This document shows positions 6,946 to 62,990 of a stretch of DNA of 64,000 nucleotides, one piece after another. Numbering within the stretch: position 1 is the first letter of the stretch; every line of letters starts with the position of its first letter. The position numbers and the translations under genes were made by a program. The stretch comes from Patescibacteria group bacterium (GTDB taxonomy: Bacteria; Patescibacteriota; Minisyncoccia; Phycocordibacterales; JBBTRF01). The notes under the pieces were generated by a model. The model saw only the letters and a list, made by a program, of their open reading frames with translations, was not told where the DNA came from and did no database searches. The DNA lies in assembly GCA_038065315.1 (NCBI GenBank), contig JBBTRF010000001.1, positions 33,642 to 97,641 of the forward strand. The letters run 5' to 3'.

Positions 6946-6982
6946 GTTGCGAACGCGCGAAAAAGACAGGAAATGAGAAAAC

Positions 6983-7014
6983 AAAAACCGCCGAAGGGGT
7001 GGTTTTTGTTTTTG
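6983..7014 (+). terminator. Rho-independent terminator-like hairpin after the KH gene
   Basis: aaaaaccgcc-gaag-gggtggttttt stem-loop followed by a T-tract. Confidence 0.5.
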
Positions 7015-7062
7015 TCCAAAGAATGTCCGAGGGAGAGGGGCGCCGCGACGTTTTTGAGTACC

Positions 7063-7110
7063 TGCGGATTTCTCATACTTTCCTCATACTTTCGTATGAC
7101 AAATCCGCAC
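7063..7110. repeat. Palindromic intergenic repeat element, copy A (gcggattt-tcatac ... gtatga-aaatccgc)
   Basis: Imperfect palindrome tgcggatttctcatactttcctcatactttcgtatgacaaatccgcac; near-identical copies at 37468-37534 and 62721-62775 (copy C is its reverse complement with 2-3 mismatches). Confidence 0.8.
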
Positions 7111-7217
7111 CTACCCGAAATCATTAGCAAGCCCACCTCGAGTCCTTGCCATACTTGTTTTCTGCAGAAAAATGTGTTTTAATCAATCCTCACTGAGGAA
7201 CATCCTCAAGAAACGTC

Positions 7218-18928: not shown

Positions 18929-20770
18929 ATGTCTTCACAGGTAGAGCAGATCAAGGAGCGCCTCGGCATCGCCGATGTGGTCGGGGCGTATCTCAAATTG
19001 GAGAAGGCTGGCGGCAATTACAAGGCCCGCTGTCCTTTTCATAATGAAAAAACACCGTCGTTTTTCCTCTCGCCGGCGCGCAGCAGCTACTACTGCTTCG
19101 GTTGCGGGGCAAAGGGTGACATCTTCACCTTCGTACAGGAGTTTGAGGGGTTGGATTTTGTCGGTGCGTTGAAAGTGCTCGCGCAGAAGGCAGGTGTGGA
19201 GCTCACGAAGGAGGACCCAAAAATGCGCAGCGAGCGGCAGCGACTCTTTCTGTGTTTGGAGTCGGCGACGATCTTTTTCCAGCGTACGCTGTACGAGAAC
19301 GCACAATACAAGGCTGTGGTGGAGTATCTCACTGGCCGCGGACTCACTAAAGATACGATAAAAGAGTGGCGTATCGGCTACGCTCCGGATGCGTGGCAGA
19401 TTCTATCGGATTATCTAAAGTCGAAGCGCTTCACCGAGCAAGATATGGAGAAGGTTGGATTGACTAAGGCGCGAGAGCCGAAAGATGGATCGGTGGGCGG
19501 CACTGGCCACTATGACCGTTTCCGCGGGCGCATCATGTTTCCGCTGTTTGATAGCTCGGGGCGAGTGATCGGTTTTTCTGGACGTATCTTTGGTCCCGAC
19601 GATGGGAAGAGTGCGAAGTATTTGAACAGTCCAGAAACTGAACTCTTCAAAAAGTCGGAAATGTTGTACGGTTTTCACAAGGCGAAGCAGGGGATTCGCG
19701 AGAAGGGGTATTCGATTTTGGTGGAAGGGCAGATGGATATGTTGATGTCGCAACAGGTGGGATTTACGAATACGGTGGCGGTGTCGGGGACAGCGCTCAC
19801 GTTGCAGCATTTGGAGATGTTGCGGCGATTGTCGGAACGGGTGGTGATGAGTTTCGATCCGGACGGCGCCGGCGTGCGTGCCGCACTGCGCGGCGCCGAG
19901 ATGGCGATTGGCCTTGGCATGGAAGTGCGCGTGGCGGAATTGCCAAAGGGGGAGGATCCGGCCCTTTTCATTTTGAACCATCCAGAGCAGTGGCGCGAGA
20001 CGGTGGAGAAGAAGGCGATCCATGTTGTGGAGTTTGTCACCAATCATCTGCTTTCGCAGCAGCTCGACCCACGTGCCCTTGCCAAAGAAGTCGGCGCCAA
20101 AGTGCTGCCGTTCATCGTCCGCATGCAGAGCTCGATGGAGCGTTCGCATTTCGTGTCGATGATCTACAAAAAAACAGGCATCAAGGAAGAGGCGATCTGG
20201 GAAGACCTGAAGCGATTGGAAAAAGTGTTGCCGGTGTCAGTGTCCGTCTCCGCCACCCAGACTGCGCAAAAAAGTGCAGGCGCTTCGGCTGCTTCATCCG
20301 CAACATCTGGTTCATCGACCACTGGTAGCACCTATGCCGACTTCGTGCAGAATGCGACACGCCGAAAACACATCGAGCGTCGACTCGCGAGTATTGTACT
20401 GTGGCAGAATACTTTGCCGGCGAGAGTGTTTGGAAATGAAGAAATGATCAAGAAACTCTCAAGTGCACTCCAGACGATTCAATCGGCTGTTCCTGATAAT
20501 GGTCTGGATGCGGAAAAGATACTCGCCGCTGTTATGGCGGAATTTCAAAAAGAGACAGAGGAATTGATCGTCGAGGCGGAGCTTTCGTATGACAAATCGG
20601 AGAAATTGGCTGAGGAAGTGAAAGAATTGCTCGAGAATTTTGTAACAGAGTGCAGCAACGAGCTCTGTGCGAAGCTGCTCTCCGAGCTTCATAAGGCCCA
20701 ACGGGATGGTGACGGGCCGAAAGTAGACCAGCTGGTGGGCGTGCTTGCCAAGCTTAAAAAAGTGAGATAA
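18929..20770 (+). CDS. dnaG: DNA primase
   Basis: Zinc ribbon CPFHNEKTPSF...YCFGCGAKGD; TOPRIM region EGQMDMLM...DPDGAG. Confidence 0.9.
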   Translation: MSSQVEQIKERLGIADVVGAYLKLEKAGGNYKARCPFHNEKTPSFFLSPARSSYYCFGCGAKGDIFTFVQEFEGLDFVGALKVLAQKAGVELTKEDPKMRSERQRLFLCLESATIFFQRTLYENAQYKAVVEYLTGRGLTKDTIKEWRIGYAPDAWQILSDYLKSKRFTEQDMEKVGLTKAREPKDGSVGGTGHYDRFRGRIMFPLFDSSGRVIGFSGRIFGPDDGKSAKYLNSPETELFKKSEMLYGFHKAKQGIREKGYSILVEGQMDMLMSQQVGFTNTVAVSGTALTLQHLEMLRRLSERVVMSFDPDGAGVRAALRGAEMAIGLGMEVRVAELPKGEDPALFILNHPEQWRETVEKKAIHVVEFVTNHLLSQQLDPRALAKEVGAKVLPFIVRMQSSMERSHFVSMIYKKTGIKEEAIWEDLKRLEKVLPVSVSVSATQTAQKSAGASAASSATSGSSTTGSTYADFVQNATRRKHIERRLASIVLWQNTLPARVFGNEEMIKKLSSALQTIQSAVPDNGLDAEKILAAVMAEFQKETEELIVEAELSYDKSEKLAEEVKELLENFVTECSNELCAKLLSELHKAQRDGDGPKVDQLVGVLAKLKKVR

Positions 20771-22003: not shown

Positions 22004-22111
22004 GCAAAACAAAAACACTTTTTTGAGAACAGCATAAATCCCTGCTGGGATTTTGCTTCGCGCTCGGCCCGTCGGCCTGCGCGATGTCTCAAAAAAGTGT
22101 TTTTGTTTTGC
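22004..22111. repeat. 25-bp perfect inverted repeat flanking a 58-bp GC-rich spacer
   Basis: gcaaaacaaaaacacttttttgaga (22004-22028) is the exact reverse complement of tctcaaaaaagtgtttttgttttgc (22087-22111); lies between the rpoD stop and the RhuM gene. Confidence 0.85.
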
Positions 22112-22162
22112 TTGCATTTTTCCTTGCAATTGCCCTCTTCCGAAAATGGTATAATGGGAGGG

Positions 22163-23200
22163 ATGAAAAAGAAACTTGGACAACCAAAGGTGACCCAGAA
22201 GTCTGGTCACGCAGAATTCTTATTGTACACGGCGCCAAATGGCAAGGTGAGCGTGGAGATATTCCTGCACAATGAGACTATCTGGCTAACACAGAAGACG
22301 CTGTCGGAGATTTTTGATTGTTCCGTGGACAATGTTTCACTGCATTTAAAAAATATCTTTGATGACGGAGAACTTTTCCCCGAGGCAGTTATCGAGGAAT
22401 TCTCGATAACTGCCAGTGATGGTAAAAAGTACAAGACGAAACACTACAACCTCGACGCCATCATCGCTGTCGGCTATCGGGTGAACAGTAAAAGAGCGAC
22501 CCATTTTCGTATGTGGGCAACGAGTATACTCAAGGAGTATATGATCAAGGGGTTTGTGATGGATGATCATAGGCTCAAAAATCCAGACGCTACTTTCGGT
22601 GGCGATTATTTCGAAGATCAACTTGCTCGCATTCGAGATATTCGTTCTAGTGAACGTAGGTTCTATCAAAAGATTTCTGATATTTATGCGACTGCTATTG
22701 ATTATGATCCGAACGAAGAATGTACGAGGAAATTTTTCGCTACGGTGCAGAACAAGCTCCATTTTGCCATAAACGGAAAGACGGCCGCAGAGATTGTTCA
22801 TGAAAGGGTAGATAGCACAAAACCGCATCTTGGTTTAACCGCATGGAAACATGGTCCGACTGGTCCGATTCGGAAGATGGACGTGATTGTTGCAAAAAAC
22901 TATCTCGACCATACAGAATTGGATGGGCTCAATCGTATTGTGACAATGTATCTTGATTATGCCGAGTCGCAAGCGAAAAGAGGAGTAGCAATGCACATGA
23001 GAGATTGGGTAGAAAAACTCAACGCCTTTCTGCAGTTCAATGAAAGAGAAATATTGCTTGACAATGGCGTCGTGAGCCACAAGATCGCCGCGGCTTTAGC
23101 TGAAGAAGAATTTGAAAAATATAGGATCGTCCAAGATAGGCTGTATGAAAGCGATTTTGATAAGGAGATGAAGAAGATTTTGGATAAAAAGAAGAAATAG
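22163..23200 (+). CDS. RhuM-family protein (virulence protein RhuM family, PF13310-like)
   Basis: ETIWLTQKTLSEIF...LHLKNIF..GEL....YNLDAIIAVGYRVNS conserved RhuM N-terminal block; AT-rich; TATAAT sits immediately upstream of ATG 22163 (ORF-track start 22097 is probably an over-extension). Confidence 0.7.
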   Translation: MKKKLGQPKVTQKSGHAEFLLYTAPNGKVSVEIFLHNETIWLTQKTLSEIFDCSVDNVSLHLKNIFDDGELFPEAVIEEFSITASDGKKYKTKHYNLDAIIAVGYRVNSKRATHFRMWATSILKEYMIKGFVMDDHRLKNPDATFGGDYFEDQLARIRDIRSSERRFYQKISDIYATAIDYDPNEECTRKFFATVQNKLHFAINGKTAAEIVHERVDSTKPHLGLTAWKHGPTGPIRKMDVIVAKNYLDHTELDGLNRIVTMYLDYAESQAKRGVAMHMRDWVEKLNAFLQFNEREILLDNGVVSHKIAAALAEEEFEKYRIVQDRLYESDFDKEMKKILDKKKK

Positions 23201-31868: not shown

Positions 31869-32696
31869 GTGAAAGGTACACCCTTGTCGGATGCAAATGA
31901 TGTCGCGCTCACAGTGCGCGCCATCGCTCTCGGTATGAAATTGGCACTCAATCTGCCGAAAGTGTTCACGCTCAGAGAGCTTGAGCATTACGAAGCCAAT
32001 CTTGATGAGCTTCCCGGGATTCTCCGGAACGGCTCTCGCTTTACCGCGACAGCCACCCAAGAAGGTGCGACTCAGACAGAACCTCCCCCGCGTCCCTCCT
32101 TCGCCTTTGCTGACACGAACGCCCTCAAGGCGATCGAGGAAGCCGAGGACTTTGCCGAGAAACACTTCGGCCATCGCCCCGACTTGCGCAAGCAGTTCAC
32201 GATGCCGAAGGTTTTGCCCTGGAAAATTGTGATCGCGGTCTATGATCCCGGCACTTTGACCCATCGCCAAGCAGTGGAGCAGGCCCTCAAGGCCCAGCCC
32301 AAGCTTAAGAGTGTGTATGAGGAGCGGGACCTGATGGACTACAAGGACGCGAAAGCTTCCGGCAAGCCCACTCTTCGCTTCGTTGAACGCTCGACGCAGC
32401 CGACACCGGACACGATGAATCTCACCGCAGACGAGATGGTGGCCACAGGGCGCGTCTTCCTCGATCTGCGCGGTTACATCATCGCCTTCGGCATGTATCA
32501 CAAGGTGACCGGCCACTTCCTCGACCCGAAGACGTGGACCCGGTTCCCAACATCGAGGCTCCCCGACGGCGGGGTGGCGAGTGGCTACTGGTTTCCGGGC
32601 TACTCGAAGGTCCGCTTCGACTGGGACTACGCCGGCTATCGCGGCTCCGACATCGGTGGTCGCGAGGCAGTCAATTGTGCCCTTGCAACTCCTTGA
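31869..32696 (+). CDS. DGR target (variable) protein; the C-terminal ~38 aa are encoded by the variable region
   Basis: GTG start with upstream AAAAAGGA; the C-terminal coding 116 nt matches the template repeat downstream except at TR adenines. Confidence 0.8.
   Translation: MKGTPLSDANDVALTVRAIALGMKLALNLPKVFTLRELEHYEANLDELPGILRNGSRFTATATQEGATQTEPPPRPSFAFADTNALKAIEEAEDFAEKHFGHRPDLRKQFTMPKVLPWKIVIAVYDPGTLTHRQAVEQALKAQPKLKSVYEERDLMDYKDAKASGKPTLRFVERSTQPTPDTMNLTADEMVATGRVFLDLRGYIIAFGMYHKVTGHFLDPKTWTRFPTSRLPDGGVASGYWFPGYSKVRFDWDYAGYRGSDIGGREAVNCALATP
32557..32672 (+). repeat. DGR variable region (VR)
   Basis: 116-nt match to 32982-33097; all 19 mismatches are at positions where the TR has A. Confidence 0.9.
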
Positions 32697-32981
32697 GCCC
32701 CTTGTTTCCTTCGACTTCTCCTCTTCACCCCTCGGCTTGCTATGGCAGGTCGGGGGTTTTTCTATGCGACAATGTGACAAAAGCAGCTCGTTTACGCTAT
32801 ACTTTTTGCAGGCTGTTAAATTGGTCCGATATTTTCAATCTGTGAAAAATGTCTGACAACAATTTGCCTAACAATAGAAACTGCTTGCTCACGTTTATAT
32901 TACGCATGCTCTGCCGCACGCATTCTCAACTCAGGAGTTTTTGCAAAAGGACTCCGGTGATACGGACGAATGTGGGCAATA

Positions 32982-33097
32982 AGGCTCCCCGACGGCAAGG
33001 TGGCGAATGGCAACTGGAATCCGGACAACTCGAAGGTCAACTTCAACTGGAACAACGCCGACAATCGCAACTCCAACATCGGTGGTCGCGAGGAAGT
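32982..33097 (+). repeat. DGR template repeat (TR)
   Basis: AAC-codon-rich (encodes NGNWNPDNSKVNFNWNNADNRNSN); 97/116 identity to VR, differing only at TR adenines. Confidence 0.9.
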
Positions 33098-33100
33098 TTC

Positions 33101-33484
33101 TCACAACAAAGAGCCACTAGGCTCTTTTTGTGTCTGGCTCGGCAGTGCGCCTGTTTGGATCGCATATGTCAGCCAGCCGTTGGTCATTTTCGAAATCTCG
33201 ATGAGTTGCTCGTAGAATCGAAAATACGTTTTCTCGGGGATGATTTGCAGTTCATGTTCAGTTCGGACAAGGTGTTTCAATATCTCGACTTGCAATCGCA
33301 GCTCCTCCAGCGCGCTTTGTTTTTCTTGCCGCGGCCGGAAAGCCGCTTCTACAGCGAGCGCAAGGCAGGCGAGAGACTGCTTTTCTATCTGTGCATGGAT
33401 ACCGAGTTTGTCTCGCTTCGATAATTTTTCTGCGCTACAATACAAGTCCTTATGCAACAGGCGAATAGCACGGATGATGGGCAA
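33101..33484 (-). CDS. avd: Avd-like accessory variability determinant (four-helix-bundle protein), probable TTG start
   Basis: LSKRDKLGIHAQIEKQSLACLALAVEAAFR and EISKMTNGWL align with the TIGR02436/Avd consensus (kyglTsQirRAavSIpsNIAEG ... mLngLi); the ORF-track start 33628 would overlap the RT N-terminus. Confidence 0.55.
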   Translation of the reverse strand: MPIIRAIRLLHKDLYCSAEKLSKRDKLGIHAQIEKQSLACLALAVEAAFRPRQEKQSALEELRLQVEILKHLVRTEHELQIIPEKTYFRFYEQLIEISKMTNGWLTYAIQTGALPSQTQKEPSGSLL

Positions 33485-33552
33485 AGTGGTATCACTGGGA
33501 GCGGTTTTGGTAGTAGCGGGGGGGGGGTATTCATGGTTTTGATTTTCGTGAT

Positions 33553-34590
33553 GTAATATTTGACGACATCGTATCGCTAAGAAGTCTTTTTTCGGCTTGG
33601 CGCCGGTTTTCAAAAGGGAAGCGGTCAAAGAAGGATGTTACCCTATTTGAGCTCCATTTGGAAGACAATCTCTTTTCTCTGCATCGTCGGCTGGTCTCGG
33701 GAGAGTGGCGTCCTGACCCGTATCAGGCTTTTTTGGTGCAGGATCCGAAGCTCCGACGAATCCATAAGGCGAGCGTCGGCGACAGGGTGCTGTATCAAGC
33801 TGTGTATCAGACGCTGTATCCGCTGTTCGACAAGCATTTTATCCATGATTCATACGCCTCTCGCGATCTGAAAGGTACGCATCGGGGTGTCGAGCGGTTT
33901 GGGGTGTTTGCGAAAAAAGTAAGTGCCAATCATTGCCATGCAGCTTTTGTGTTGAAGTGTGACGTGCGGAAATTTTTCGACTCCATTGATCACGACATTT
34001 TGTTGGAACTGCTGGGGCGGAAGCTTGGCGGCCGCGCGTCGGGCACTCCACACCTGCTCAGACTTCTCGAAAAGATCATCCGCTCTTTTGAGGCTTCACC
34101 TGGCAAAGGGCTGCCGCTCGGAAATGTCACGAGCCAGATTTTTGCGAATATCTACCTCAACAAACTCGATCAATTTGTGAAGCATTTCCTGCGCGCGCAA
34201 TACTATATACGATACTGCGACGATTTTGTATTGCTATCGTCGTCGCGCGAGGAGCTCGAGGGTTGGACTCGGGAAATCGGCCAATTTTTGCAGGAGCATC
34301 TGAAACTTTCATTGCATCCGAACAAGGTCACGATACGCAAGCTGCTCCAGGGAACGGATTTTCTCGGGTATGTGAGCTTGCCGCGCTATCGCGTGTTGCG
34401 GACGAAAACCAGAAACAGGATGTTCAAAAAGATCGTTGGACTCGCGGCTGAGGTGAAGAGTGGAAAGATTTCTGAGGATCGTTTTTGCAATTCACTCGCT
34501 TCCTATCTCGGCATGTTGAGACATTGCAAAAGTAAGAAGGTGTTGGCGGAACTCGGCACGCTACTTGGTACCGCTGACCAACCCCGATGA
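33553..34590 (+). CDS. DGR-type reverse transcriptase (probable GTG start upstream of ORF-track start 33658)
   Basis: LPLGNVTSQIFANIYLNKLD (DGR-specific SQ motif), YCDDFVL (YxDD); an upstream in-frame AWRRFSKGKRSKKDV matches the usual DGR RT N-terminus. Confidence 0.85.
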   Translation, partial: VIFDDIVSLRSLFSAWRRFSKGKRSKKDVTLFELHLEDNLFSLHRRLVSGEWRPDPYQAFLVQDPKLRRIHKASVGDRVLYQAVYQTLYPLFDKHFIHDSYASRDLKGTHRGVERFGVFAKKVSANHCHAAFVLKCDVRKFFDSIDHDILLELLGRKLGGRASGTPHLLRLLEKIIRSFEASPGKGLPLGNVTSQIFANIYLNKLDQFVKHFLRAQYYIRYCDDFVLLSSSREELEGWTREIGQFLQEHLKLSLHPNKVTIRKLLQGTDFLGYVSLPRYRVLRTKTRNRMFKKIVGLAAEVKSGKISEDRFCNSLASYLGMLRHCKSKKVLAELGTLLGTADQPR

Positions 34591-35310: not shown

Positions 35311-35413
35311 GTGCTATATTGGGTTGACGAACCGTTGTAGTCCGAGCAATTTTCTGAGCCAGCATCAACACTAAACATTTTTGGAGTTTTGTCAACAAAG
35401 TCGCAGAACGCAC

Positions 35414-36205
35414 ATGCCTTTCCTCATCAACAAAAAGCTCGGCGAAACGCCGCTCAAATGTCTCGAGCGTTTTTGCGCTGAAAGAGCTGCTGTGGGCAAG
35501 GTTGCTTTTGCCGATGCTCGCTCTATGCCATTTACCTACGCTGGCCGACTTGATCCAATGGCTGAAGGCCTGCTCGTGGTGCTCGCGGGCGAAGAGTGTA
35601 AACAGAAGGAAAAATATCTTGGTTTGGACAAAGTGTATGAGACAGAATTTTTGCTCGGAGTGGAGACGGATACGCATGATGTGTTGGGAATGGTGCAGGA
35701 TTCCGCGCTGGCCGCAACCTCTCAACAGTCCTCGAACACTTCTTTAGAACAATTTGAGACGGTCTTGAGAACATTTTTAGGTAAACGCATACAGGTGTAC
35801 CCGGCGTATTCTTCGAAGCCGCACAAGGGTCGGCCGTTGTTCGAGCTGGCGCGTGCTGGCGAGTTGCCAACTGAAGGTGAGATGCCGAGCAGGGAGGTCG
35901 AGATCTATCAGATCGAGGTGCTGGGTGAACGCATCGTGACAGCCGACGAGCTAGAGCAGCAGATCCTCGAAAGGATCGCGCTCGTGAAGGGCGATTTTCG
36001 GCAGCCGGAGATCGCAGTAAGGTGGCGGCAGTTTTTCCAGACGAATCATGATCGAAATTTTCAGGTGTTATCGCTCCGTATCCACTGTTCAAGCGGCACC
36101 TATATCCGCTCACTGGCGCAGGAAATAGGGAAACGTCTTGGCACTGGCGCCATCGCTTTTTCGATCAAACGCACGCAGGTGGGTGATTTTTTGCTATCGG
36201 CGTAG
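35414..36205 (+). CDS. truB: tRNA pseudouridine synthase TruB-family protein (paralog 1)
   Basis: GRLDPMAEGLLVVLAGEECK catalytic Asp motif; C-terminal SGTYIRSLAQEIG. Confidence 0.75.
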   Translation: MPFLINKKLGETPLKCLERFCAERAAVGKVAFADARSMPFTYAGRLDPMAEGLLVVLAGEECKQKEKYLGLDKVYETEFLLGVETDTHDVLGMVQDSALAATSQQSSNTSLEQFETVLRTFLGKRIQVYPAYSSKPHKGRPLFELARAGELPTEGEMPSREVEIYQIEVLGERIVTADELEQQILERIALVKGDFRQPEIAVRWRQFFQTNHDRNFQVLSLRIHCSSGTYIRSLAQEIGKRLGTGAIAFSIKRTQVGDFLLSA

Positions 36206-36697: not shown

Positions 36698-36795
36698 CAA
36701 GAGACAAAAAAGCTCCCGCAAGGGGGCTTTTTTGTTTGGCGCAAGTGTGGGATACTACTCCTGTTATCAGCGAATATCAGCAAAATAAAATCGAT

Positions 36796-37269
36796 ATGAA
36801 TTTTATCTCAAAAGTCGCAGTGTGGTTTCGAAATGAGGACGCGGGCCTCCTCGTGCTCCGAGTGGCGGTGGCGATTCCGTTTATTGTTCACGGATATGCC
36901 AAGCTTGCCGATCATGGTATGTATGTGCAGGCATTTGCGAGCATGGGCATCTTTGCTCCAGCTTTCATGGCCTGGTTTGTTGGCTTGGTTGAGTTTGTTG
37001 GCGGCATTGTGGTCTTGCTCGGCATTTTCGTGCGAACAGCGGGGGTCCTCCTAACTGTGGTGATGGTGGTAGCAATTGCGACTGTCCACGCAAAGAGCGG
37101 ATATTCAGCAATGACCGGTGGCTACGAGTACCAGCTCACTCTTTTGTTGACAGCGTTGGCGGTGGCTTTCACTGGCGCTGGCAAGTATGTTCCAGCTCCG
37201 TTGGCGAAGCTTGAAGCGAAGTGTTGTGCTGGTTGTGCTAGCACCTGCGGTTGTGACGAGACGAAGTAG
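36796..37269 (+). CDS. DoxX-family membrane protein with Cys-rich C-terminal tail
   Basis: 4-TM DoxX-like profile; C-terminus AKCCAGCASTCGCDETK. Confidence 0.65.
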   Translation: MNFISKVAVWFRNEDAGLLVLRVAVAIPFIVHGYAKLADHGMYVQAFASMGIFAPAFMAWFVGLVEFVGGIVVLLGIFVRTAGVLLTVVMVVAIATVHAKSGYSAMTGGYEYQLTLLLTALAVAFTGAGKYVPAPLAKLEAKCCAGCASTCGCDETK

Positions 37270-37467
37270 CATACTTTTTTCTTGAGAAACAAAAAACCGC
37301 CCAGACAAGACGGGCGGTTTTTTGTTTGGGCACATCTTCATACAAAATTGAACAAAAATTGAGTATCTCTTTAACAAAAATTAGGCATTTCTTGAACCTT
37401 TCTTAGCAGTTTCTCTACCGATGCTTTGCTAGAGTATGGGTTCAGCGGGGGTGGTGAGGCAAAAAAC

Positions 37468-37534
37468 AGTAGATGCGGATTTCTCATACTTTGTATGAAT
37501 TTGTATGAGAAAGTATGAGAAATCCGCATCTACT
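37468..37534. repeat. Palindromic intergenic repeat element, copy B (25-nt perfect arms)
   Basis: agtagatgcggatttctcatacttt ... aaagtatgagaaatccgcatctact with a 17-nt loop; same core as 7063-7110 and 62721-62775. Confidence 0.85.
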
Positions 37535-37614
37535 AAAAAACATCGGCAGACACCCTCTCGGATGTTTTATTACTAATCTCAACCGCTACTTTTCGGCTGT
37601 CTAGTTCAAATACT

Positions 37615-37941
37615 ATGAGAAAAAGAATCACACTATCCCTGTCGAATAATTTGCTAGAAAAGGTTCGTGTTGCCAAAGACGAGCGAGAAATTTCAACTAC
37701 AATGAGCGCAATGTTCGAAAACATTATCGTTGTGTGGGACCACGCGCGGAAACTCAAAACTGTTGAAAAGAAAAAGACGAACAGAGCTTTTTCTGAGTCA
37801 TTTGCTCGAGAAATGAAAGAACACCCCGAGTGGTATATCGGCGACGGGCCGGATGATCCAGGTCACGATGAAGACGAAGGAGTTGGATTTTGGCGTAACT
37901 ATTATGCGAAACAAAAACCGCCGCCTCCTCGCGGTTTTTGA
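37615..37941 (+). CDS. Ribbon-helix-helix (CopG/antitoxin-like) DNA-binding protein with acidic C-terminal tail
   Basis: KRITLSLSNNLLEKVRVAKDEREISTTMSAMFENII fits a beta-alpha-alpha RHH pattern. Confidence 0.5.
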   Translation: MRKRITLSLSNNLLEKVRVAKDEREISTTMSAMFENIIVVWDHARKLKTVEKKKTNRAFSESFAREMKEHPEWYIGDGPDDPGHDEDEGVGFWRNYYAKQKPPPPRGF

Positions 37942-37947
37942 CCGACA

Positions 37948-39756
37948 CTACCCCTGCTTCTGCGACTTCAACCGATCGCCTTCTTTCAAGAAGCGCTTGC
38001 GGAGGCGGGTTTTGGTAGGGGTGATCTCGAGATAGTCGTCCTCGGCCATGATTTCCATGCCGCGTTCAATATTGAGTTTCAGGGGCGGCGTGAGCAACAC
38101 CAAGCCGTCGGAACTCTTCTGTCGCATGTTGGTGAGCTGCTTGGCTTTCACAGGATTCACCGCCATGTCCTCACCCTTGGTGACATTACCCACGACCATA
38201 CCCTCGTACAGCTCGTCGCCCGGTTCGATGTATAGCGAACCACGTTCCTGCAATTTTTCGAGAGAATAGGCGATCGCCTTGCCGTTTTCCATAGACACCA
38301 TTGAGCCAAAAGAAGTGCGCTGCACTTCGCCGGCCCATGGTCGGAACTCCAAGAATCGGGAAGACATAATACCTTCGCCTCGAGTGTCCACCACAAACTG
38401 TCCGCGATAGCCAAGCAGACCTCGAGTCGGCATTTCGAAGACGATACGAGTCGTGCCATCGCCTTCCTTCATCTGTGTCATCATGCCACGTCGCTCCGAA
38501 AGTGTCTTAATGATCGCACCCGTCACTTCCGGCTTCACATCGATGATCACTTCCTCAAACGGCTCGAGCTTCTTGCCACCCTCTTCCTTCACAATGACCT
38601 GCGGCTGAGAGATCTGCACTTCGTAGCCTTCGCGTCGCATATTTTCAAGCAAAATAGAAATGTGAAGCTCGCCTCGGCCGTACACCTTGAAAAAGTCGTT
38701 GGCGGCGAAATCCACCTTGAGACCGACGTTCACTTCGAGCTCTTTTTCGAGTCGCTCACGGATCTGTCGGCTGGTGACAAATTTGCCTTCGCGGCCGGCG
38801 AAAGGTGAGTCGTTGACCAAAAAATTGAGGGAAATAGTCGGTTCGTCGATCTTGATGGTCGGCAACGGGGTGGCATCAGCCGCACCGCAGATGGTCTCGC
38901 CGATGTAGATCGAAGGAAGACCGGCGATCATCGCGATGTCGCCTGCGAATGCCTCTTGCACCTCCTTTCGAGCGGTACCTTCGAAGGTGAAAATCTTGGT
39001 GATCTTTCCAGTGACGGTTTCCGCCCCGTCCTTCTTAATGAACACCTGCTGCGCCATCTTCACGCTACCTTCCTGGATGCGGCCGATCGCCATACGTCCG
39101 AGAAAGTTGTCGTATGCGAGGTTAAACGCCTGCATGCGGAGTGGCTTGGCTTCGAGCGCGTCGTGAGTGGCCTGGTCGGTGCCGTTGGCTGAAGGGACAA
39201 GCTTCAAAATAGTATCCAAAAGCGGGGTGAGGTCGGCACTTTCGTCGGTGAGCTTCATTTTCGCGATACCCTGGCGGCCGATCGCGTAGACGGTGGTGAA
39301 ATCGAGCTGCTGGTCGTTGGCGCCGAGCTCCATGAAGAGCTCGAGGATTTCTTCGTGCGCTTCTGCGGGTCGAGCGGCCGGCTTGTCGATCTTGTTGAGC
39401 ACGACGATCGGCTTGAGTCCCAATTCGAGAGACTTCTTGAGTACGAAACGAGTCTGCGGCATTGGACCTTCCTGCGCGTCTACCACGAGCAGCACCGTGT
39501 CGATGGATCGCAACACACGCTCCACTTCGGAACCGAAGTCGGCGTGACCCGGGGTGTCCACGATGTTGATCTTGGTGTCCTTGTAGTAGAGGGAAGTGTT
39601 TTTCGCGTAAATAGTAATGCCGCGCTCTAGTTCGAGAGCGTTGGAGTCCATGCTGGCACCTTCTTCAGCCGCTCCATTTTGTTTCAATAGAGCGTCGGTG
39701 AGGGTGGTCTTACCATGGTCCACGTGGGCGATGATGGCGATGTTGCGAATTTCCAT
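37948..39756 (-). CDS. typA: Translational GTPase TypA/BipA
   Basis: AIIAHVDHGKTTL, DTPGHADF, NKID G-motifs plus BipA C-terminal domain. Confidence 0.9.
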   Translation of the reverse strand: MEIRNIAIIAHVDHGKTTLTDALLKQNGAAEEGASMDSNALELERGITIYAKNTSLYYKDTKINIVDTPGHADFGSEVERVLRSIDTVLLVVDAQEGPMPQTRFVLKKSLELGLKPIVVLNKIDKPAARPAEAHEEILELFMELGANDQQLDFTTVYAIGRQGIAKMKLTDESADLTPLLDTILKLVPSANGTDQATHDALEAKPLRMQAFNLAYDNFLGRMAIGRIQEGSVKMAQQVFIKKDGAETVTGKITKIFTFEGTARKEVQEAFAGDIAMIAGLPSIYIGETICGAADATPLPTIKIDEPTISLNFLVNDSPFAGREGKFVTSRQIRERLEKELEVNVGLKVDFAANDFFKVYGRGELHISILLENMRREGYEVQISQPQVIVKEEGGKKLEPFEEVIIDVKPEVTGAIIKTLSERRGMMTQMKEGDGTTRIVFEMPTRGLLGYRGQFVVDTRGEGIMSSRFLEFRPWAGEVQRTSFGSMVSMENGKAIAYSLEKLQERGSLYIEPGDELYEGMVVGNVTKGEDMAVNPVKAKQLTNMRQKSSDGLVLLTPPLKLNIERGMEIMAEDDYLEITPTKTRLRKRFLKEGDRLKSQKQG

Positions 39757-40204: not shown

Positions 40205-40321
40205 GAGGTAAGGTCCTTTCCAAGAAACTCAAATAGACAAAGAGCTGTTGAGTTTCCTTCTATTATTACATAGAATGCCAAGCATATGGGAGAAGCACCG
40301 AAAAATCCTCCGGCGGAGCTA

Positions 40322-40981
40322 ATGTTGGTCGACAAGCCAGCCGGTATCAGCTCTTTTGACGTGATTCGCCGATTGCAGAGAGAATCCGCCTACGCTGGCC
40401 GAAAAATGGGGCATGCCGGTACTCTCGATCCTTTGGCGACAGGGTTGATGATCATTGGTATTGATGGTGGGACGAAGCGTTTGGCGGAACTGCTCGGGCT
40501 GTCGAAAGTGTACGAAGCAGAATTCGTGGTCGGTATGCGGACCGATAGCGGAGATACGGACGGGCGGGTATTGGAGCAGTGGTCGACCGAGCAGGTGGCG
40601 ACATTTGGTGCTGGCATTACGGCAGAGCATATCGAGGCGGTGTTGGTTGGGATGAAGGGCGCGCTGCACTTGCCGGTACCGATCTACTCGGCGATTAAGC
40701 GCGGTGGGAAAAAGTTGTACGAATTGGCTCGCGCGGGGCAGACGGCAGAAGAGATCAAGCCACCGATGAAAGAAATGACGGTCGAGTCCGTACGATTTTT
40801 GGGATGGGAAAATACCGCCAATGGTCCGCGAGTGCGAGTGGAGCTCGGTGTGTCTAGTGGTACCTATATCCGCTCACTAGGAGAGGAGTTTGGCCGGCGC
40901 ATTGGCGCGCTGGTGACGATGAGTGCACTGCGGCGCACGAGTATTGGCGAATTTTCAGTGAGAGACGCGCGGAAAATCTAG
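40322..40981 (+). CDS. truB: tRNA pseudouridine synthase TruB-family protein (paralog 2)
   Basis: LVDKPAGISSFDV ... GHAGTLDPLATGLMII; C-terminal SGTYIRSLGEEFG. Confidence 0.8.
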   Translation: MLVDKPAGISSFDVIRRLQRESAYAGRKMGHAGTLDPLATGLMIIGIDGGTKRLAELLGLSKVYEAEFVVGMRTDSGDTDGRVLEQWSTEQVATFGAGITAEHIEAVLVGMKGALHLPVPIYSAIKRGGKKLYELARAGQTAEEIKPPMKEMTVESVRFLGWENTANGPRVRVELGVSSGTYIRSLGEEFGRRIGALVTMSALRRTSIGEFSVRDARKI

Positions 40982-41415
40982 TCGCGGAGTCCTTTTAGTT
41001 TGTGGGTCGGTCCGTATTCATTGGCCGAGTAGACAAAGAGAGCGAGAGCAACAAGAACAACATTTTTGATGATGTATTGGCCTTCGAGTGTTGGCGTGAG
41101 AAAGCCCTGCCAGGTCATCGCTGGAATAAAGAAGAGTGGCATCACGGTGGTGGCCATATGAATTACAAAAAGCCAGAAGGCGATTTTTTCGCAACGCGGA
41201 ATCAAAAAGAGGAGGCCGATGAGCATTTCAAAGAGGGCAAACCAAATAATAAAATTATCAAAAGACCAGAACGGCATTGTGGCGTGGAGCAGACCGGCGA
41301 CCAGCGGATTGGCGGGACTGAGGTCAAACAGCTTGAGGGCACCGAACCAGAAGTAGACGATAAAAAGTGCGAGTCGTCCGATAAGTGATGAGAGATGGAT
41401 GTGTTTTGGATTCAT
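40978..41415 (-). CDS. Small integral membrane protein (DoxX/YkgB-like)
   Basis: 4 predicted TM helices; start at MNPKHIHL. Confidence 0.5.
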   Translation of the reverse strand: MNPKHIHLSSLIGRLALFIVYFWFGALKLFDLSPANPLVAGLLHATMPFWSFDNFIIWFALFEMLIGLLFLIPRCEKIAFWLFVIHMATTVMPLFFIPAMTWQGFLTPTLEGQYIIKNVVLVALALFVYSANEYGPTHKLKGLRD

Positions 41416-41657
41416 TAAGCTAGTATAGCGCGCTCGCCGCTCGCGCGCTGTGGATTGCGAGAAGGTTTTGAGAATATTACGACCACAGACCGCCCCACCA
41501 CTCAAAGGTGTGGTGCATCAAAAGTGCCATAGGGATATAGATCGGCGCGAGAAGGATGAAGATGACTTTATTCACAGAAAAGAATCATAGGGTAAAATCA
41601 CCGCTTTGCCAAGGGAAATGTGGCCTAGACTGTGGACAAAATGCTATACTACCGAAC

Positions 41658-47605: not shown

Positions 47606-47785
47606 AAACAGAGGTTTTGCAAGGTTTTTATTGCACAGGTTTCGGGCCTCGTCGTCAGTGCCCGCCCACTCAATTTTGATGAAATTTCTATCGAAAAATA
47701 CGGCGCATATCGCTTTGAGATAAAATCCGTATGAGTTTTTTGCTTGCGTTTTAACAATTGGCTCTTGTATACTATTGCAACAAAG

Positions 47786-48049
47786 ATGATATCAAAAAAT
47801 ACAAAAGAAAATCAGAAAGCACTCATCTACCAGGCGAAAGACGGGGCCATCGAGCTGCGTGGCGATTTTCCCCATGAGACGGTCTGGGCGACGCAGGCGC
47901 AAATCGTCAGGCTATTTAACATTGATCAGTCTGTAGTATCTAGGCATATCAATAACCTTTTCAAGGATGGTGAGATTGAAGAAAAAAGCAATATGCAAAA
48001 AATGCATAATGCAAATTCCGATAAACCAGTGAGTCTTTACTCACTGTAA
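47786..48049 (+). pseudogene. Truncated RhuM-family N-terminal fragment
   Basis: ALIYQAKDGAIELRGDFPHETVWATQAQIVRLF...HINNLFKDGEI aligns with the N-terminus of the full RhuM protein at 22163-23200 but stops after ~88 aa. Confidence 0.6.
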
Positions 48050-52641: not shown

Positions 52642-53484
52642 TTATGTGAAAAAGAAAAGTGTCAAGATCATTATCGAGAAGGCCATTCCACTGATGTATT
52701 TTGTCTTCATAATTTTTTTATAAGCACTCTCGTCTGAAGACACCTTCTTTAATACGGTATATACATATAACCCAACGCAGACTTCCACTAAAAGAGAAAT
52801 CACACTAACAGAATTTGAAATTTTTAAAAAAGAGTATGACAAAAGTAATCCGCCTAAATCAAAAAACGCAATAAAAGAAGTCCTAACCCCTTTCAGGCCG
52901 TATTTAACAGCAAATGTGGTATCCCCACGTTTTTTGTCTGCCTCGATCTGATATAGCTGTGATAACGGATACATACTTAGGACAAGACAGGTGGCACCGA
53001 ATGCTGCTATTAGTAGGTTGTAGTTAAAAATCTGACCACCAAAAGAAATATACCCAAAACCAAAAGAACATACTACCGTTGCTATTCCGATGGCTACGAA
53101 ACTCATAGTGGGGCTGCCTTTCCAGCGGGTATGTGGGCTGCTGTATAGCCAGAAAAATAGGACACTGATTACATAAAGAATGCTAAATACCCAGCCACTC
53201 ACCAAAGCAATAAGAAGACCAGCGCCTTGAAGTCCCCAAGATGCATAGAGCATCCACTTTTTCATTATCGGTGGGTGTTCCAATCCTCCGATTGGGCCAG
53301 TATCCTTGTCGTAGTAGGAATTATATGCAGTGACGCCTCCAAATAAGAGTCCGTGGATTGAGATGAACTGGATCAAAAATTGCAAAATGGTTGTTCTAGG
53401 GGAAAATAAGCCGCCCAGCAAAAATGGCCCTGAGAGAATAAAAAACTGATAATTCAATCTGAGGTGCTTAAGAAAATCTAGCAT
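52642..53484 (-). CDS. UbiA-family prenyltransferase
   Basis: Polytopic membrane protein with NSYYDKDTG Asp-rich motif. Confidence 0.65.
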   Translation of the reverse strand: MLDFLKHLRLNYQFFILSGPFLLGGLFSPRTTILQFLIQFISIHGLLFGGVTAYNSYYDKDTGPIGGLEHPPIMKKWMLYASWGLQGAGLLIALVSGWVFSILYVISVLFFWLYSSPHTRWKGSPTMSFVAIGIATVVCSFGFGYISFGGQIFNYNLLIAAFGATCLVLSMYPLSQLYQIEADKKRGDTTFAVKYGLKGVRTSFIAFFDLGGLLLSYSFLKISNSVSVISLLVEVCVGLYVYTVLKKVSSDESAYKKIMKTKYISGMAFSIMILTLFFFT

Positions 53485-60324: not shown

Positions 60325-60744
60325 GTGGAAAACGATCGGAAACATACTGAAATAGGATACAAGAAAGATTTCGACGCATGGAATGCGCTGCAGATACGAA
60401 TTCACTCTGATTTCAAGGGGAATGCGTTTGTTCAGGGTGAGGTGTGGTTGGCCTATCTCGGTGTGAACATCGGCCGTGAGCAAGATGGACCACCCCCAGC
60501 TTTTCTACGTCCAGTTCTGATTATCAAAAGATGCAATCAAAGGTTGTGTTGGATACTGCCACTTACACGCCAACGTCCAAAATATCTAACGCATCACGAA
60601 ATTACACGTGTCGGTGAGCCGCCTAGTTTTGTCGTATTTGAACACCTCCGTTCGGTCGACTCCCGTCGTCTCAAAAAGAAGTTGTTCCAATTGGCTGCGG
60701 AAGAGGTCGAGGCGATACGAAAACGCCTCAGAGATTTGCTCTGA
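60325..60744 (+). CDS. PemK/MazF-family toxin-like protein with ~45-aa N-terminal extension (no adjacent antitoxin)
   Basis: GEVWLAYLGVNIGREQDG...RPVLII resembles Kid/PemK GEIWLVSLDPTAGHEQQGTRPVLIV; downstream ILPLT and SFVVFEHLRSVDSRRL blocks. Confidence 0.6.
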   Translation: MENDRKHTEIGYKKDFDAWNALQIRIHSDFKGNAFVQGEVWLAYLGVNIGREQDGPPPAFLRPVLIIKRCNQRLCWILPLTRQRPKYLTHHEITRVGEPPSFVVFEHLRSVDSRRLKKKLFQLAAEEVEAIRKRLRDLL

Positions 60745-62673: not shown

Positions 62674-62720
62674 TCAAGGTGGCCAGTCGAATTGGCAGGG
62701 TGTCTGACAGTGAAGTTTCA

Positions 62721-62775
62721 TACGTGCGGATTTGTCATACGAAAGTATGAGAAAAGTATGAAAAATCCGCACGTA
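62721..62775. repeat. Palindromic intergenic repeat element, copy C
   Basis: tacgtgcggatttgtcatacgaaagtatgagaaaagtatgaaaaatccgcacgta is the reverse complement of copy A with a few substitutions. Confidence 0.85.
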
Positions 62776-62990
62776 CTCAAAAGAGCCTCAACAGAGGGCT
62801 TTTTTGTTGTTCATCTGCCCACATCCGGCGGCATGGCCAAGCTATTGACAAATAGCTTCATTTGTGCGAGAATAAAGCAAGTTCGCCAAACCTTGAAATC
62901 TTGGCGGCTCAGCCTAAAACAGGGGGTTTCACCTAATCGGCCGTTGTTCGGTCGGCTCTCTGTGGCGGTTGTGTGTGGCACTTTGTAATT

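Follow-up and report, generated by a model that had tools for sequence, protein, structure and literature searches.

A nested palindromic intergenic repeat with likeness to REP elements in freshwater and groundwater Candidatus Saccharibacteria

The REP and BIME elements of Enterobacteria and the REPINs of Pseudomonas are short, extragenic, hairpin-forming repeats that are dispersed within particular clades. They lie mostly at the 3′ ends of genes or between the cistrons of operons, group around a master sequence, persist at orthologous sites and show no target-site duplications; the partner of the REPINs is RAYT, a Y1 HUH transposase (PF01797). REPs are known to act as terminators or as stabilizing hairpins. 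Correia/NEMIS and ERIC are MITE-type repeats with RNA hairpins that RNase III or RNase E process. Saccharibacteria and other bacteria of the Candidate Phyla Radiation (CPR) have genomes of less than 1 Mb and are thought to carry little non-coding baggage. Here we describe a palindromic element that occurs three times (copies A, B and C) in a 64,000-nt stretch of a Patescibacteria genome (contig JBBTRF010000001.1, positions 33,642–97,641; this whole stretch is called the window below) and in 26 distinct copies in total. We lean towards reading it as a clade-specific family of nested intergenic palindromes of the REP/BIME/REPIN kind, with constraint on its core at the DNA level and a secondary role as an RNA hairpin or terminator.

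Apart from a RAYT partner, the traits just listed for REPs, BIMEs and REPINs recur here. In addition, the copies are put together, as in BIMEs, from a small set of exchangeable modules (arms, A or T runs and two outer-box types), and the GTA[G/C] just 5′ of the stem may correspond to the GTAG of REPs. The differences are (i) an estimated ten to a few tens of copies per genome, compared with tens to hundreds in REP families; (ii) a large loop (13–25 nt) that is conserved in sequence and composed of 7-bp boxes in phase, which are homologous to the arm; (iii) the lack of a RAYT among the genes flanking the copies and (iv) the host, an ultra-small CPR genome, for which kind of host we found no report of REP-type repeats. 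Correia/NEMIS (Neisseria) and ERIC are likewise about 100–150 bp, intergenic and co-transcribed, with long hairpins that are potential RNase III substrates, but the 26-bp terminal inverted repeats, TA duplication and strain-to-strain presence or absence of Correia elements are not seen here. Intrinsic terminators also combine a hairpin with A or T runs, and three copies (L007, L012 and L021) consist of a hairpin followed by T5–6 in the gene direction, with no other terminator. In the ordinary terminators of the genome, however, a unique GC-rich hairpin is preceded by an A run and followed by a T run, an arrangement found in none of the 26 copies, and the element has a 23–26 bp stem that is AU-rich at its base and a 13–25 nt loop.

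Direct reading of the window gives GCGGATTTsTCATAC-loop-GTATGAsAAATCCGC as the core shared by the three copies. Three near-identical palindromes had been proposed by an earlier sequence-only reading of this DNA, and the cores at 7064–7108, 37475–37527 and 62726–62770 fall within the ranges it gave. It was also right that copy B has perfect 25-nt arms (37468–37492 and 37510–37534; the fold pairs 25–26 bp) and that copies A and C have reverse-complementary cores, which differ by two substitutions where two to three had been counted. The extents that it assigned capture the core and fall short of the conserved unit, which is about 115 bp and not 45–65 bp. When the 15-nt arm GCGGATTTSTCATAC is searched with up to two mismatches, seven matches are obtained in the window, six of them being arms of copies A, B and C. 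Dinucleotide shuffles yield 0.24 ± 0.55 matches and none of 100 reached seven, ruling out a chance origin of the palindromes. A family-profile search (nhmmer) of the window returns exactly three copies and no weaker matches. Their parts are as follows.

7029..7144, minus strand (on which the purine-rich loop reads): copy A, full element; nhmmer 106 bits, E 2e-32, and alignment
Within copy A: G-rich box 7029–7049; T run 7051–7055; outer stem 7056–7063 / 7109–7116; degenerate distal box about 7122–7139
7064..7108: copy A core; arm 7064–7078 (GCGGATTTCTCATAC), 15-nt loop 7079–7093 (TTTCCTCATACTTTC), arm 7094–7108 (GTATGACAAATCCGC)
37440..37560, plus strand: copy B, full element; nhmmer 76.9 bits, E 3e-23
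Within copy B: G-rich box 37445–37460; A run 37461–37466; outer stem 37467–37474 / 37528–37534; core 37475–37527
Distal parts of copy B: A run 37535–37540; C-rich box 37541–37557
37468..37534: copy B perfect hairpin; fold −40.9 kcal/mol, z −12
62694..62782 (start and end approximate), plus strand: copy C, full element; nhmmer 97.2 bits, E 2e-29
Within copy C: G-rich box 62694–62712; outer stem 62718–62725 / 62771–62778; A run 62779–62782
62726..62770: copy C core; arm, loop GAAAGTATGAGAAAA, arm

The core of copy B holds four GTATGA-type boxes at 10-bp spacing, which gives a 23-nt loop relative to 15-nt arms; in copy C the distal box is replaced by the holB terminator. Folded as RNA, the three copies reach −24 to −41 kcal/mol, and all of them beat their shuffles (z −7 to −12); as single-stranded DNA they do so with z −4.9 to −11. 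A peptide noticed in the open reading frame (ORF) track of all three copies is real in the sense that the ORF at 62692–62988 contains CGFVIRKYEKSMKNPHVLK, but it is a trivial product of non-coding sequence. A coding function can be excluded: with loops of 13, 15, 23 and 25 nt the frame is not kept from copy to copy, and orthologues carry the loop in inverted form. Two sequences inside ORFs, at 52826–52860 and 20587–20601, partly resemble the right arm (AAAAAAGAGTATGACAAAAGTAATCCGCC, and TCCGATTTGTCATAC on the minus strand); the family profile does not recognize them and they are probably due to chance.

Outside the window, the family is found only in close relatives. Among 185,579 species genomes, one each, the exact two-arm pattern matches just two metagenome-assembled genomes (MAGs): the uncultured Candidatus Saccharibacteria MAG CAZRTH01, which has 8 exact-pattern copies on 5 contigs and at least 9 in all, and MAG JBAXTI01, with 2 exact-pattern copies. 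A relaxed pattern applied to a metagenome collection returned 16 stretches, 11 of which are true members from groundwater and lakes; the other five (L024, L026, L028, L030 and L031) are hairpins of no relation to the family and were set aside. Profile searches of all the retrieved DNA raised the total to the 26 distinct copies, so that the element is not restricted to three positions. The genome of the window contributes 3 copies in 74 kb scanned, and we put the copy number at roughly ten to a few tens per ~0.8-Mb genome. The TrmD sequence of the window recurs identically on Hainich groundwater metagenome contigs and in MAG GCA_964355935.1, and the window was assigned to this groundwater Candidatus Saccharibacteria MAG. 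No matches to the element were found in viral contigs, phage genomes or plasmids. In Rfam no family matches it (the sole match in the window at gathering score is a tRNA), and permissive thresholds bring up only generic long-hairpin models of miRNA precursors, far below their cut-offs. Our literature search found no report that contains the sequence, nor any of REP-type repeats in Saccharibacteria or Patescibacteria. The family thus appears to be confined to a genus-level group of freshwater and groundwater Candidatus Saccharibacteria and is apparently undescribed.

All 26 copies are intergenic, and many begin 3–40 nt after a stop codon. They bear out the REP-like part of the earlier suggestion, as a dispersed family of hairpin-forming repeats, and stand beside housekeeping genes, the flanking genes including dnaE, pyrG plus a sigma factor, topA, aspS/scpA, gyrB, pheS, pheT, dnaK/dnaJ, recA, secY/adk, uvrA and rplY. 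An all-against-all comparison of 77 flanking ORFs yields orthologous sites only, and the idea of a recurring neighbour gene was dropped. On CAZRTH010000005.1 (L015, L016), gyrB is bracketed by two copies (pheT|gyrB and gyrB|orf), with a third one upstream of pheS at a distance of about 5 kb from that between pheT and gyrB.

An alignment of the 26 distinct copies underlies what follows on anatomy, pairing and runs. With the purine-rich loop on top, the element reads as a G-rich box (of two types, GGGGTGGCGnnGC or GGGTGTCCGCCGAC), a run of A5–6 or T5, the outer stem GAGTAssT, the arm GCGGATTTnTCATAC and the loop, followed by the arm GTATGAnAAATCCGC, the outer stem AssTACTC, a second run (usually A5) and a C-rich box. 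The loop has the form (G/A)AAA-GTATGAG-(G/A)AAA and thereby contains one further copy of the 7-bp box of the arm, or two further copies in window copy B, L021, L022 and L032. Each copy has 3–4 boxes, spaced by 10 or 11 bp in 26 of 26 cases, and loop length varies by one-box steps (13/15 to 23/25 nt). The blocks GGATTT and CATAC are invariant on both arms of every copy. Conservation is lowest in the outer G- and C-rich boxes, which form an imperfect inverted pair (GGGGTGnCGCC... / ...GGCGnCACCCC). Inside the outer stem, 2–3 nt before GCGG, a GTA[C/G] motif is evident: G43 is present in 23 of 26 copies, T44 in at least 90% and A45 in 22 of 26, and the next base is C or G.

Within the 23-bp stem, 89% of the alignment cells form standard pairs, and the observed covariation was reached in 0 of 500 shuffles. 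At arm position 9, 11 copies have the pair G-C, 9 have U-A and 1 has C-G; at position 10, 23 copies have U-A and 3 have G-C. About half of the copies carry mismatches at two outer-stem positions, mostly CC/CC or GG/GG. Among mismatches, G·T and A·C are equally frequent (13:13). A bistable hairpin, in which the left arm pairs with the middle box via a GAAA tetraloop, was considered and rejected, being 10 kcal/mol worse than the full stem. The orientation of the element relative to neighbouring genes is 12:9 among the 21 copies that can be oriented. The flanking runs combine as A..A in 15 copies, T..A in 6–8 and T..T in 3, and never as A..T (0/26); a T run follows the hairpin in the gene direction in 6 of the 21 orientable copies.

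Orthologous sites show how the element behaves over time. Orthologues of copy A are found upstream of trmD in L010, L033/L034 and L035, where the KH protein is 100% and TrmD 86–94% identical; the orthologue of copy B is L018 and that of copy C is L012. Site A is occupied in 4 of 4 genomes at this level of TrmD identity, and sites B and C in both genomes compared. In relatives with TrmD 72–75% identical, the KH–trmD spacer lacks the element and contains only ordinary, unique terminators. Where the element is present, its 45-bp core in the KH–trmD spacer is 87–98% identical between species, allowing for inversion, whereas the outer 48 nt on each side and the remaining spacer are only 42–68% identical; unrelated window segments aligned in the same way give a random baseline of 47–49 ± 4%. 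At sites B and C the arms are 93–100% identical and the flanks 29–74%. The comparison of orthologous intergenic regions therefore reveals a core that is kept while the spacer around it falls to near random identity.

Orthologous copies are on average 80% identical and non-orthologous ones 81–83%. The paralogues L007, L008, L010 and L016b of one MAG are 95–98% identical to one another and to copies in other genomes, and a master sequence is therefore indicated. A sub-family has the arms TGCATAC/GTATGCA, the outer stem TACCC/GGGTA and the loop box GTATGAAG. It occupies the trmD site in L035 and the pheS-proximal site in L016a, and the orthologues of both sites carry the main form. Between orthologues at the trmD site the 15-nt loop is exactly reverse-complemented: in the gene direction, the window and L035 read like TTTCCTCATACTTTC, and L010 and L033 like GAAAGTATGAGGAAA, while the outer frame GAGTACCT...ACCTAC is unchanged. 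The arms, for their part, change symmetrically between copies. The flip-flop loop inversions in intergenic spacers of chloroplasts, or quasi-palindrome template switches, are similar in that the loop is an exact reverse complement, the stem and its context are kept and the arms change together. They are a mutational process and not an element family, however, and account for the variation seen here but not for the conservation. At each of the three window sites, the sequence agrees base for base in 4–7 independent assemblies of the one population. On these grounds phase variation through inversion of the loop was set aside, with the reservation that consensus assemblies could hide minor variants.

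In the window the copies are located between KH and trmD (A), between DoxX and orf108 (B) and between holB and orf188 (C). The terminators of these spacers are listed here.

6977..7013, plus strand: ordinary bidirectional intrinsic terminator after the KH (khpA-like) gene; fold −21.3 kcal/mol, A-run/hairpin/T-run
37287..37327, plus strand: ordinary bidirectional intrinsic terminator following the DoxX gene; separate from the element
62778..62806, plus strand: intrinsic terminator directly downstream of copy C; ends the holB transcript

Copy A follows the first of these, which is separate from the element, at a distance of ~15 nt, and copy B follows the second at ~115 nt. A position downstream of a terminator, which had been ascribed to every copy, is thus correct for A and B and incorrect for C: copy C comes directly after the holB stop (62673) and its terminator lies beyond it. 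Since that terminator ends the holB transcript, copy C is within the holB 3′ untranslated region. In the gene direction the hairpin is followed by GAAAT in copy A, A6 in copy B and A4 in copy C, with no T run. The ordinary terminators of the lineage and its relatives (window 6977–7013 and 37287–37327; L037, L050 and L052) are long, perfect and unique palindromes, bidirectional by virtue of an A run before the hairpin and a T run after it. The consensus terminator scanner that we used has limited sensitivity and overlooked the clear terminator that follows KH. By eye we read, a short way upstream of copy B (37425–37440), an extended −10-like TGnTAnAGTAT, which is kept in the orthologue L018 at about 330–345; if this promoter is real, copy B would be a transcribed 5′ leader of orf108.

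Most likely the family belongs to the REP class, as it combines extragenic hairpins, mosaic modules, clade specificity, a master sequence, persistence at orthologous sites, a lack of end duplications and a GTA[C/G] foot that may match the GTAG of REPs. We infer that the core is read or renewed at the DNA level, and not via one RNA strand, because it is kept amid randomized surroundings, because its loop and arm blocks are invariant and because inversion and either orientation are tolerated. A trans-acting protein may recognize the sequence together with the hairpin, a RAYT-like HUH enzyme being the best-known precedent. Alternatively, or as an added step, hairpin-templated correction from arm to arm and conversion from copy to copy could operate. 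Either route would give rise to arms that change symmetrically and loops that flip, and the second also to sub-families that exchange.

At the RNA level, a transcribed element would form a hairpin of −24 to −41 kcal/mol. With a T run after it, this hairpin would end the transcript; with an A run after it, it would act as a non-terminating 3′ or intercistronic hairpin, which can buffer mRNA decay. Probably the element doubles as a terminator or as a non-terminating stabilizing hairpin, depending on its flank. Copies inside the dnaK–dnaJ and secY–adk pairs have A runs, and those after dnaE, recA and holB (L012) have T runs and no other terminator nearby. At the holB site, L012 presents a hairpin plus T5 and no separate terminator, whereas the orthologous window copy C presents a hairpin plus A4 and then a separate terminator. 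Constraint on the hairpin at the RNA level is suggested because no copy has the A..T arrangement, which would make it a bidirectional terminator, and because the type of run follows the gene context.

Several observations weigh against a REP-like family with these roles. The link between run type and transcript end is drawn from ~20 copies, with gene directions assigned by hand and a scanner of limited sensitivity. No RAYT, HUH or other transposase gene adjoins any of the 26 copies, and a crude scan for HUH/Y1 motifs in 294 kb of DNA from the clade, which covers only part of any one genome, was negative. The estimated copy number is low for a REP family; the sequence-conserved loop of phased 7-bp boxes is atypical of REPs and fits a protein-binding array on double-stranded DNA equally well; and symmetric arm changes can come from quasi-palindrome template switching without selection. 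It is possible, and we offer this more tentatively, that the core is the recognition site of a sequence- and structure-specific DNA-binding or DNA-processing system unique to the clade, held by purifying selection at a few tens of fixed borders of housekeeping genes. The system could be a domesticated HUH/RAYT-like partner, a 'nested replicator' in an ultra-reduced genome, or a new nucleoid-organizing or roadblock protein.

Much of the anatomy would also be expected of another arrangement, in which the core is a double-stranded DNA-binding array of three or four 7-bp GTATGAS boxes on one helix face, the outer two extended by AAATCCGC, and the hairpin potential is a by-product of the inversion of the outer boxes. 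The ligand would be a clade-specific protein, whether a global regulator, a nucleoid-organizing factor or a roadblock. Box spacing that is always 10 or 11 bp, loop length that moves in one-box steps, an unpaired loop as conserved as the arms that survives inversion, GGATTT and CATAC blocks that are invariant in 26 of 26 copies and do not covary, a core conserved between flanks at the random baseline and an orientation independent of the genes are all consistent with such an array, and the interchange of A and T runs is as expected if only a narrow minor groove matters. Known phased operators (the RHH omega heptads, the met boxes and the OmpR/PhoB 7-bp repeats with 4-bp spacers) likewise have direct and inverted 7-bp boxes in variable number at a 10–11 bp period; here, by contrast, the arms co-vary as base pairs and the sites lie outside the promoters of any coherent gene set. 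We consider the array somewhat unlikely. Copies within one genome differ symmetrically at arm positions 9–10 (G/C, T/A, C/G and TG/CA), which points to base pairing or arm-to-arm copying and not to protein specificity. Moreover, neither the boxes nor GCGGATTT show enrichment elsewhere than in the elements, no coherent regulon emerges from the neighbouring genes, and many copies are downstream of genes, outside promoters. The sole candidate ligand is orf108 (37615–37941), an orphan ORF of 108 aa directly after copy B with an orthologue in L018. Its N-terminus, MRKRITLSLSNNLLEKV, looks like a ribbon-helix-helix by eye, but it could not be shown to be one: Pfam has no match to it, CopG comes up only at E about 1, its AF2 model (pLDDT 68) found no match in a fold search, and 5.8 billion proteins include only 2 homologues. 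No relatives of orf108 were found near other copies of the element. Likenesses between GCGGATTT and DnaA boxes, between the boxes and Pho boxes and between GAGTAC and SlmA sites were considered and rejected, as these sub-motifs show no enrichment beyond the elements and the gene contexts argue against them. A purely RNA-level cis element is, in our judgement, less probable than the array. Its copies would resemble one another by common descent and serve as terminators, as barriers to 3′–5′ exonucleases (e.g. the RNase R encoded in the window) or as RNase III sites. The hairpins are indeed very stable, with 23–26 bp stems that are long enough for RNase III, many copies start 3–40 nt past a stop codon, the distribution of A and T runs described above and the missing A..T arrangement fit, and an RNase III gene lies in the syntenic neighbourhood of relatives (L033, L035). 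Such a role leaves unexplained why the loop and GGATTT/CATAC stay invariant while the flanks decay, and there is no excess of G·U over A·C. Little transcription is expected of A, B, L010, L033 and L035, which lie between an upstream terminator-like hairpin and the next gene, and a loop that is inverted between orthologues is not being maintained as RNA sequence. A simple terminator family is not supported, as a T run follows the hairpin in only 6 of 21 orientable copies and in 0 of 3 window copies.

The structured-RNA interpretation offered by the sequence-only reading accordingly survives in part: a generic hairpin or terminator effect in RNA is likely, but a strand-specific RNA gene or motif is not supported, given the lack of an Rfam match, the inverted loop, the 12:9 orientation and the 13:13 mismatches. 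The same evidence bears on a multi-copy family of small RNA genes comparable to the csRNA, LhrC or Qrr paralogues, with the pyrimidine-strand loop UUUCCUCAU as an anti-Shine-Dalgarno seed. The core at orthologous intergenic sites is conserved far above its flanks, one strand of the loop is CU-rich and the T..T copies end in a hairpin plus U6, all as such genes would require, but no promoter is conserved among the copies, the would-be seed is inverted between orthologues at the same site and a T run follows the hairpin in the gene direction in only 6 of 21 orientable copies, with no Rfam match; we regard this explanation as highly improbable. We think equally little of a MITE mobilized by a transposase that recognizes the outer G-rich/C-rich inverted boxes. 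The ~115 bp size, the imperfectly inverted outer boxes, the sub-families and the intergenic location are all MITE-like, and a mobile, MITE-like nature had been suggested from the sequence. The outer boxes, however, are the least conserved part of the element, and no direct repeat is common to the sequences outside the G/C boxes of the 26 copies, so that no target-site duplication is visible at their boundaries. In 330 kb there is neither an empty site nor a solo outer module, no orthologous site examined is polymorphic for presence, no transposase gene lies near the copies, no insertion sequence was seen in the DNA examined and plasmids, phages and viruses gave no matches. With sites occupied in up to four genomes, mobility in this sense is not supported. 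A variant in which the core was inserted into the palindrome GAGTAnnTACTC with a 4-bp duplication (the recurrent ACCT...ACCT) was rejected for the same want of an empty target or solo outer module in 330 kb.

Returning to the REP-like reading, the preservation of the core at fixed borders (dnaK/dnaJ, secY/adk, gyrB, recA and trmD) implies an active process, be it a binding protein, a RAYT-like enzyme or gene conversion. If a partner protein is found, either the within-genome symbiosis of REPINs and RAYTs or a new chromosome-organizing site would be extended to the CPR; a recognition system unique to the clade, if true, would be the first of its kind in the CPR, and the case becomes more interesting if the factor that preserves the core proves to be something other than a RAYT. 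In practice, the element can serve as a clade marker, should be masked as a source of spurious ORFs and supplies candidate portable hairpin or terminator modules for the emerging genetics of Saccharibacteria.

Other features of the window are recorded here for completeness. A diversity-generating retroelement occupies 32556–34590, with a reverse transcriptase gene at 33658–34590 (Pfam RVT_1, E 8e-23; LGNVTSQ and YCDD motifs), a template repeat at 32982–33097 and a variable repeat at 32556–32671, at the 3′ end of an ORF on the plus strand. The two repeats are 84% identical over 116 nt, and 30 of their 46 mismatches pair an A in the template with G, T or C in the variable repeat. We found no link between this retroelement and the palindromic element. 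A RhuM-family gene is present at 22097–23200 (Pfam Virulence_RhuM, E 5e-111), together with a short fragment resembling its N-terminal part, with a weak HTH match, at 47744–48049. A PemK-family toxin ORF lies at 60325–60744 according to precomputed annotation of the identical contig (L046, L053), and a YafQ-type toxin pair is found in the syntenic region of a relative (L033, 4327–4866). Finally, two TruB-like genes (35381–36205 and 40286–40981, from precomputed Pfam annotation) stand on either side of the BipA gene (37948–39756), which is also flanked by two DoxX-like ORFs (36736–37269, by Pfam, and 40978–41505, by eye); this arrangement looks like an old local duplication.

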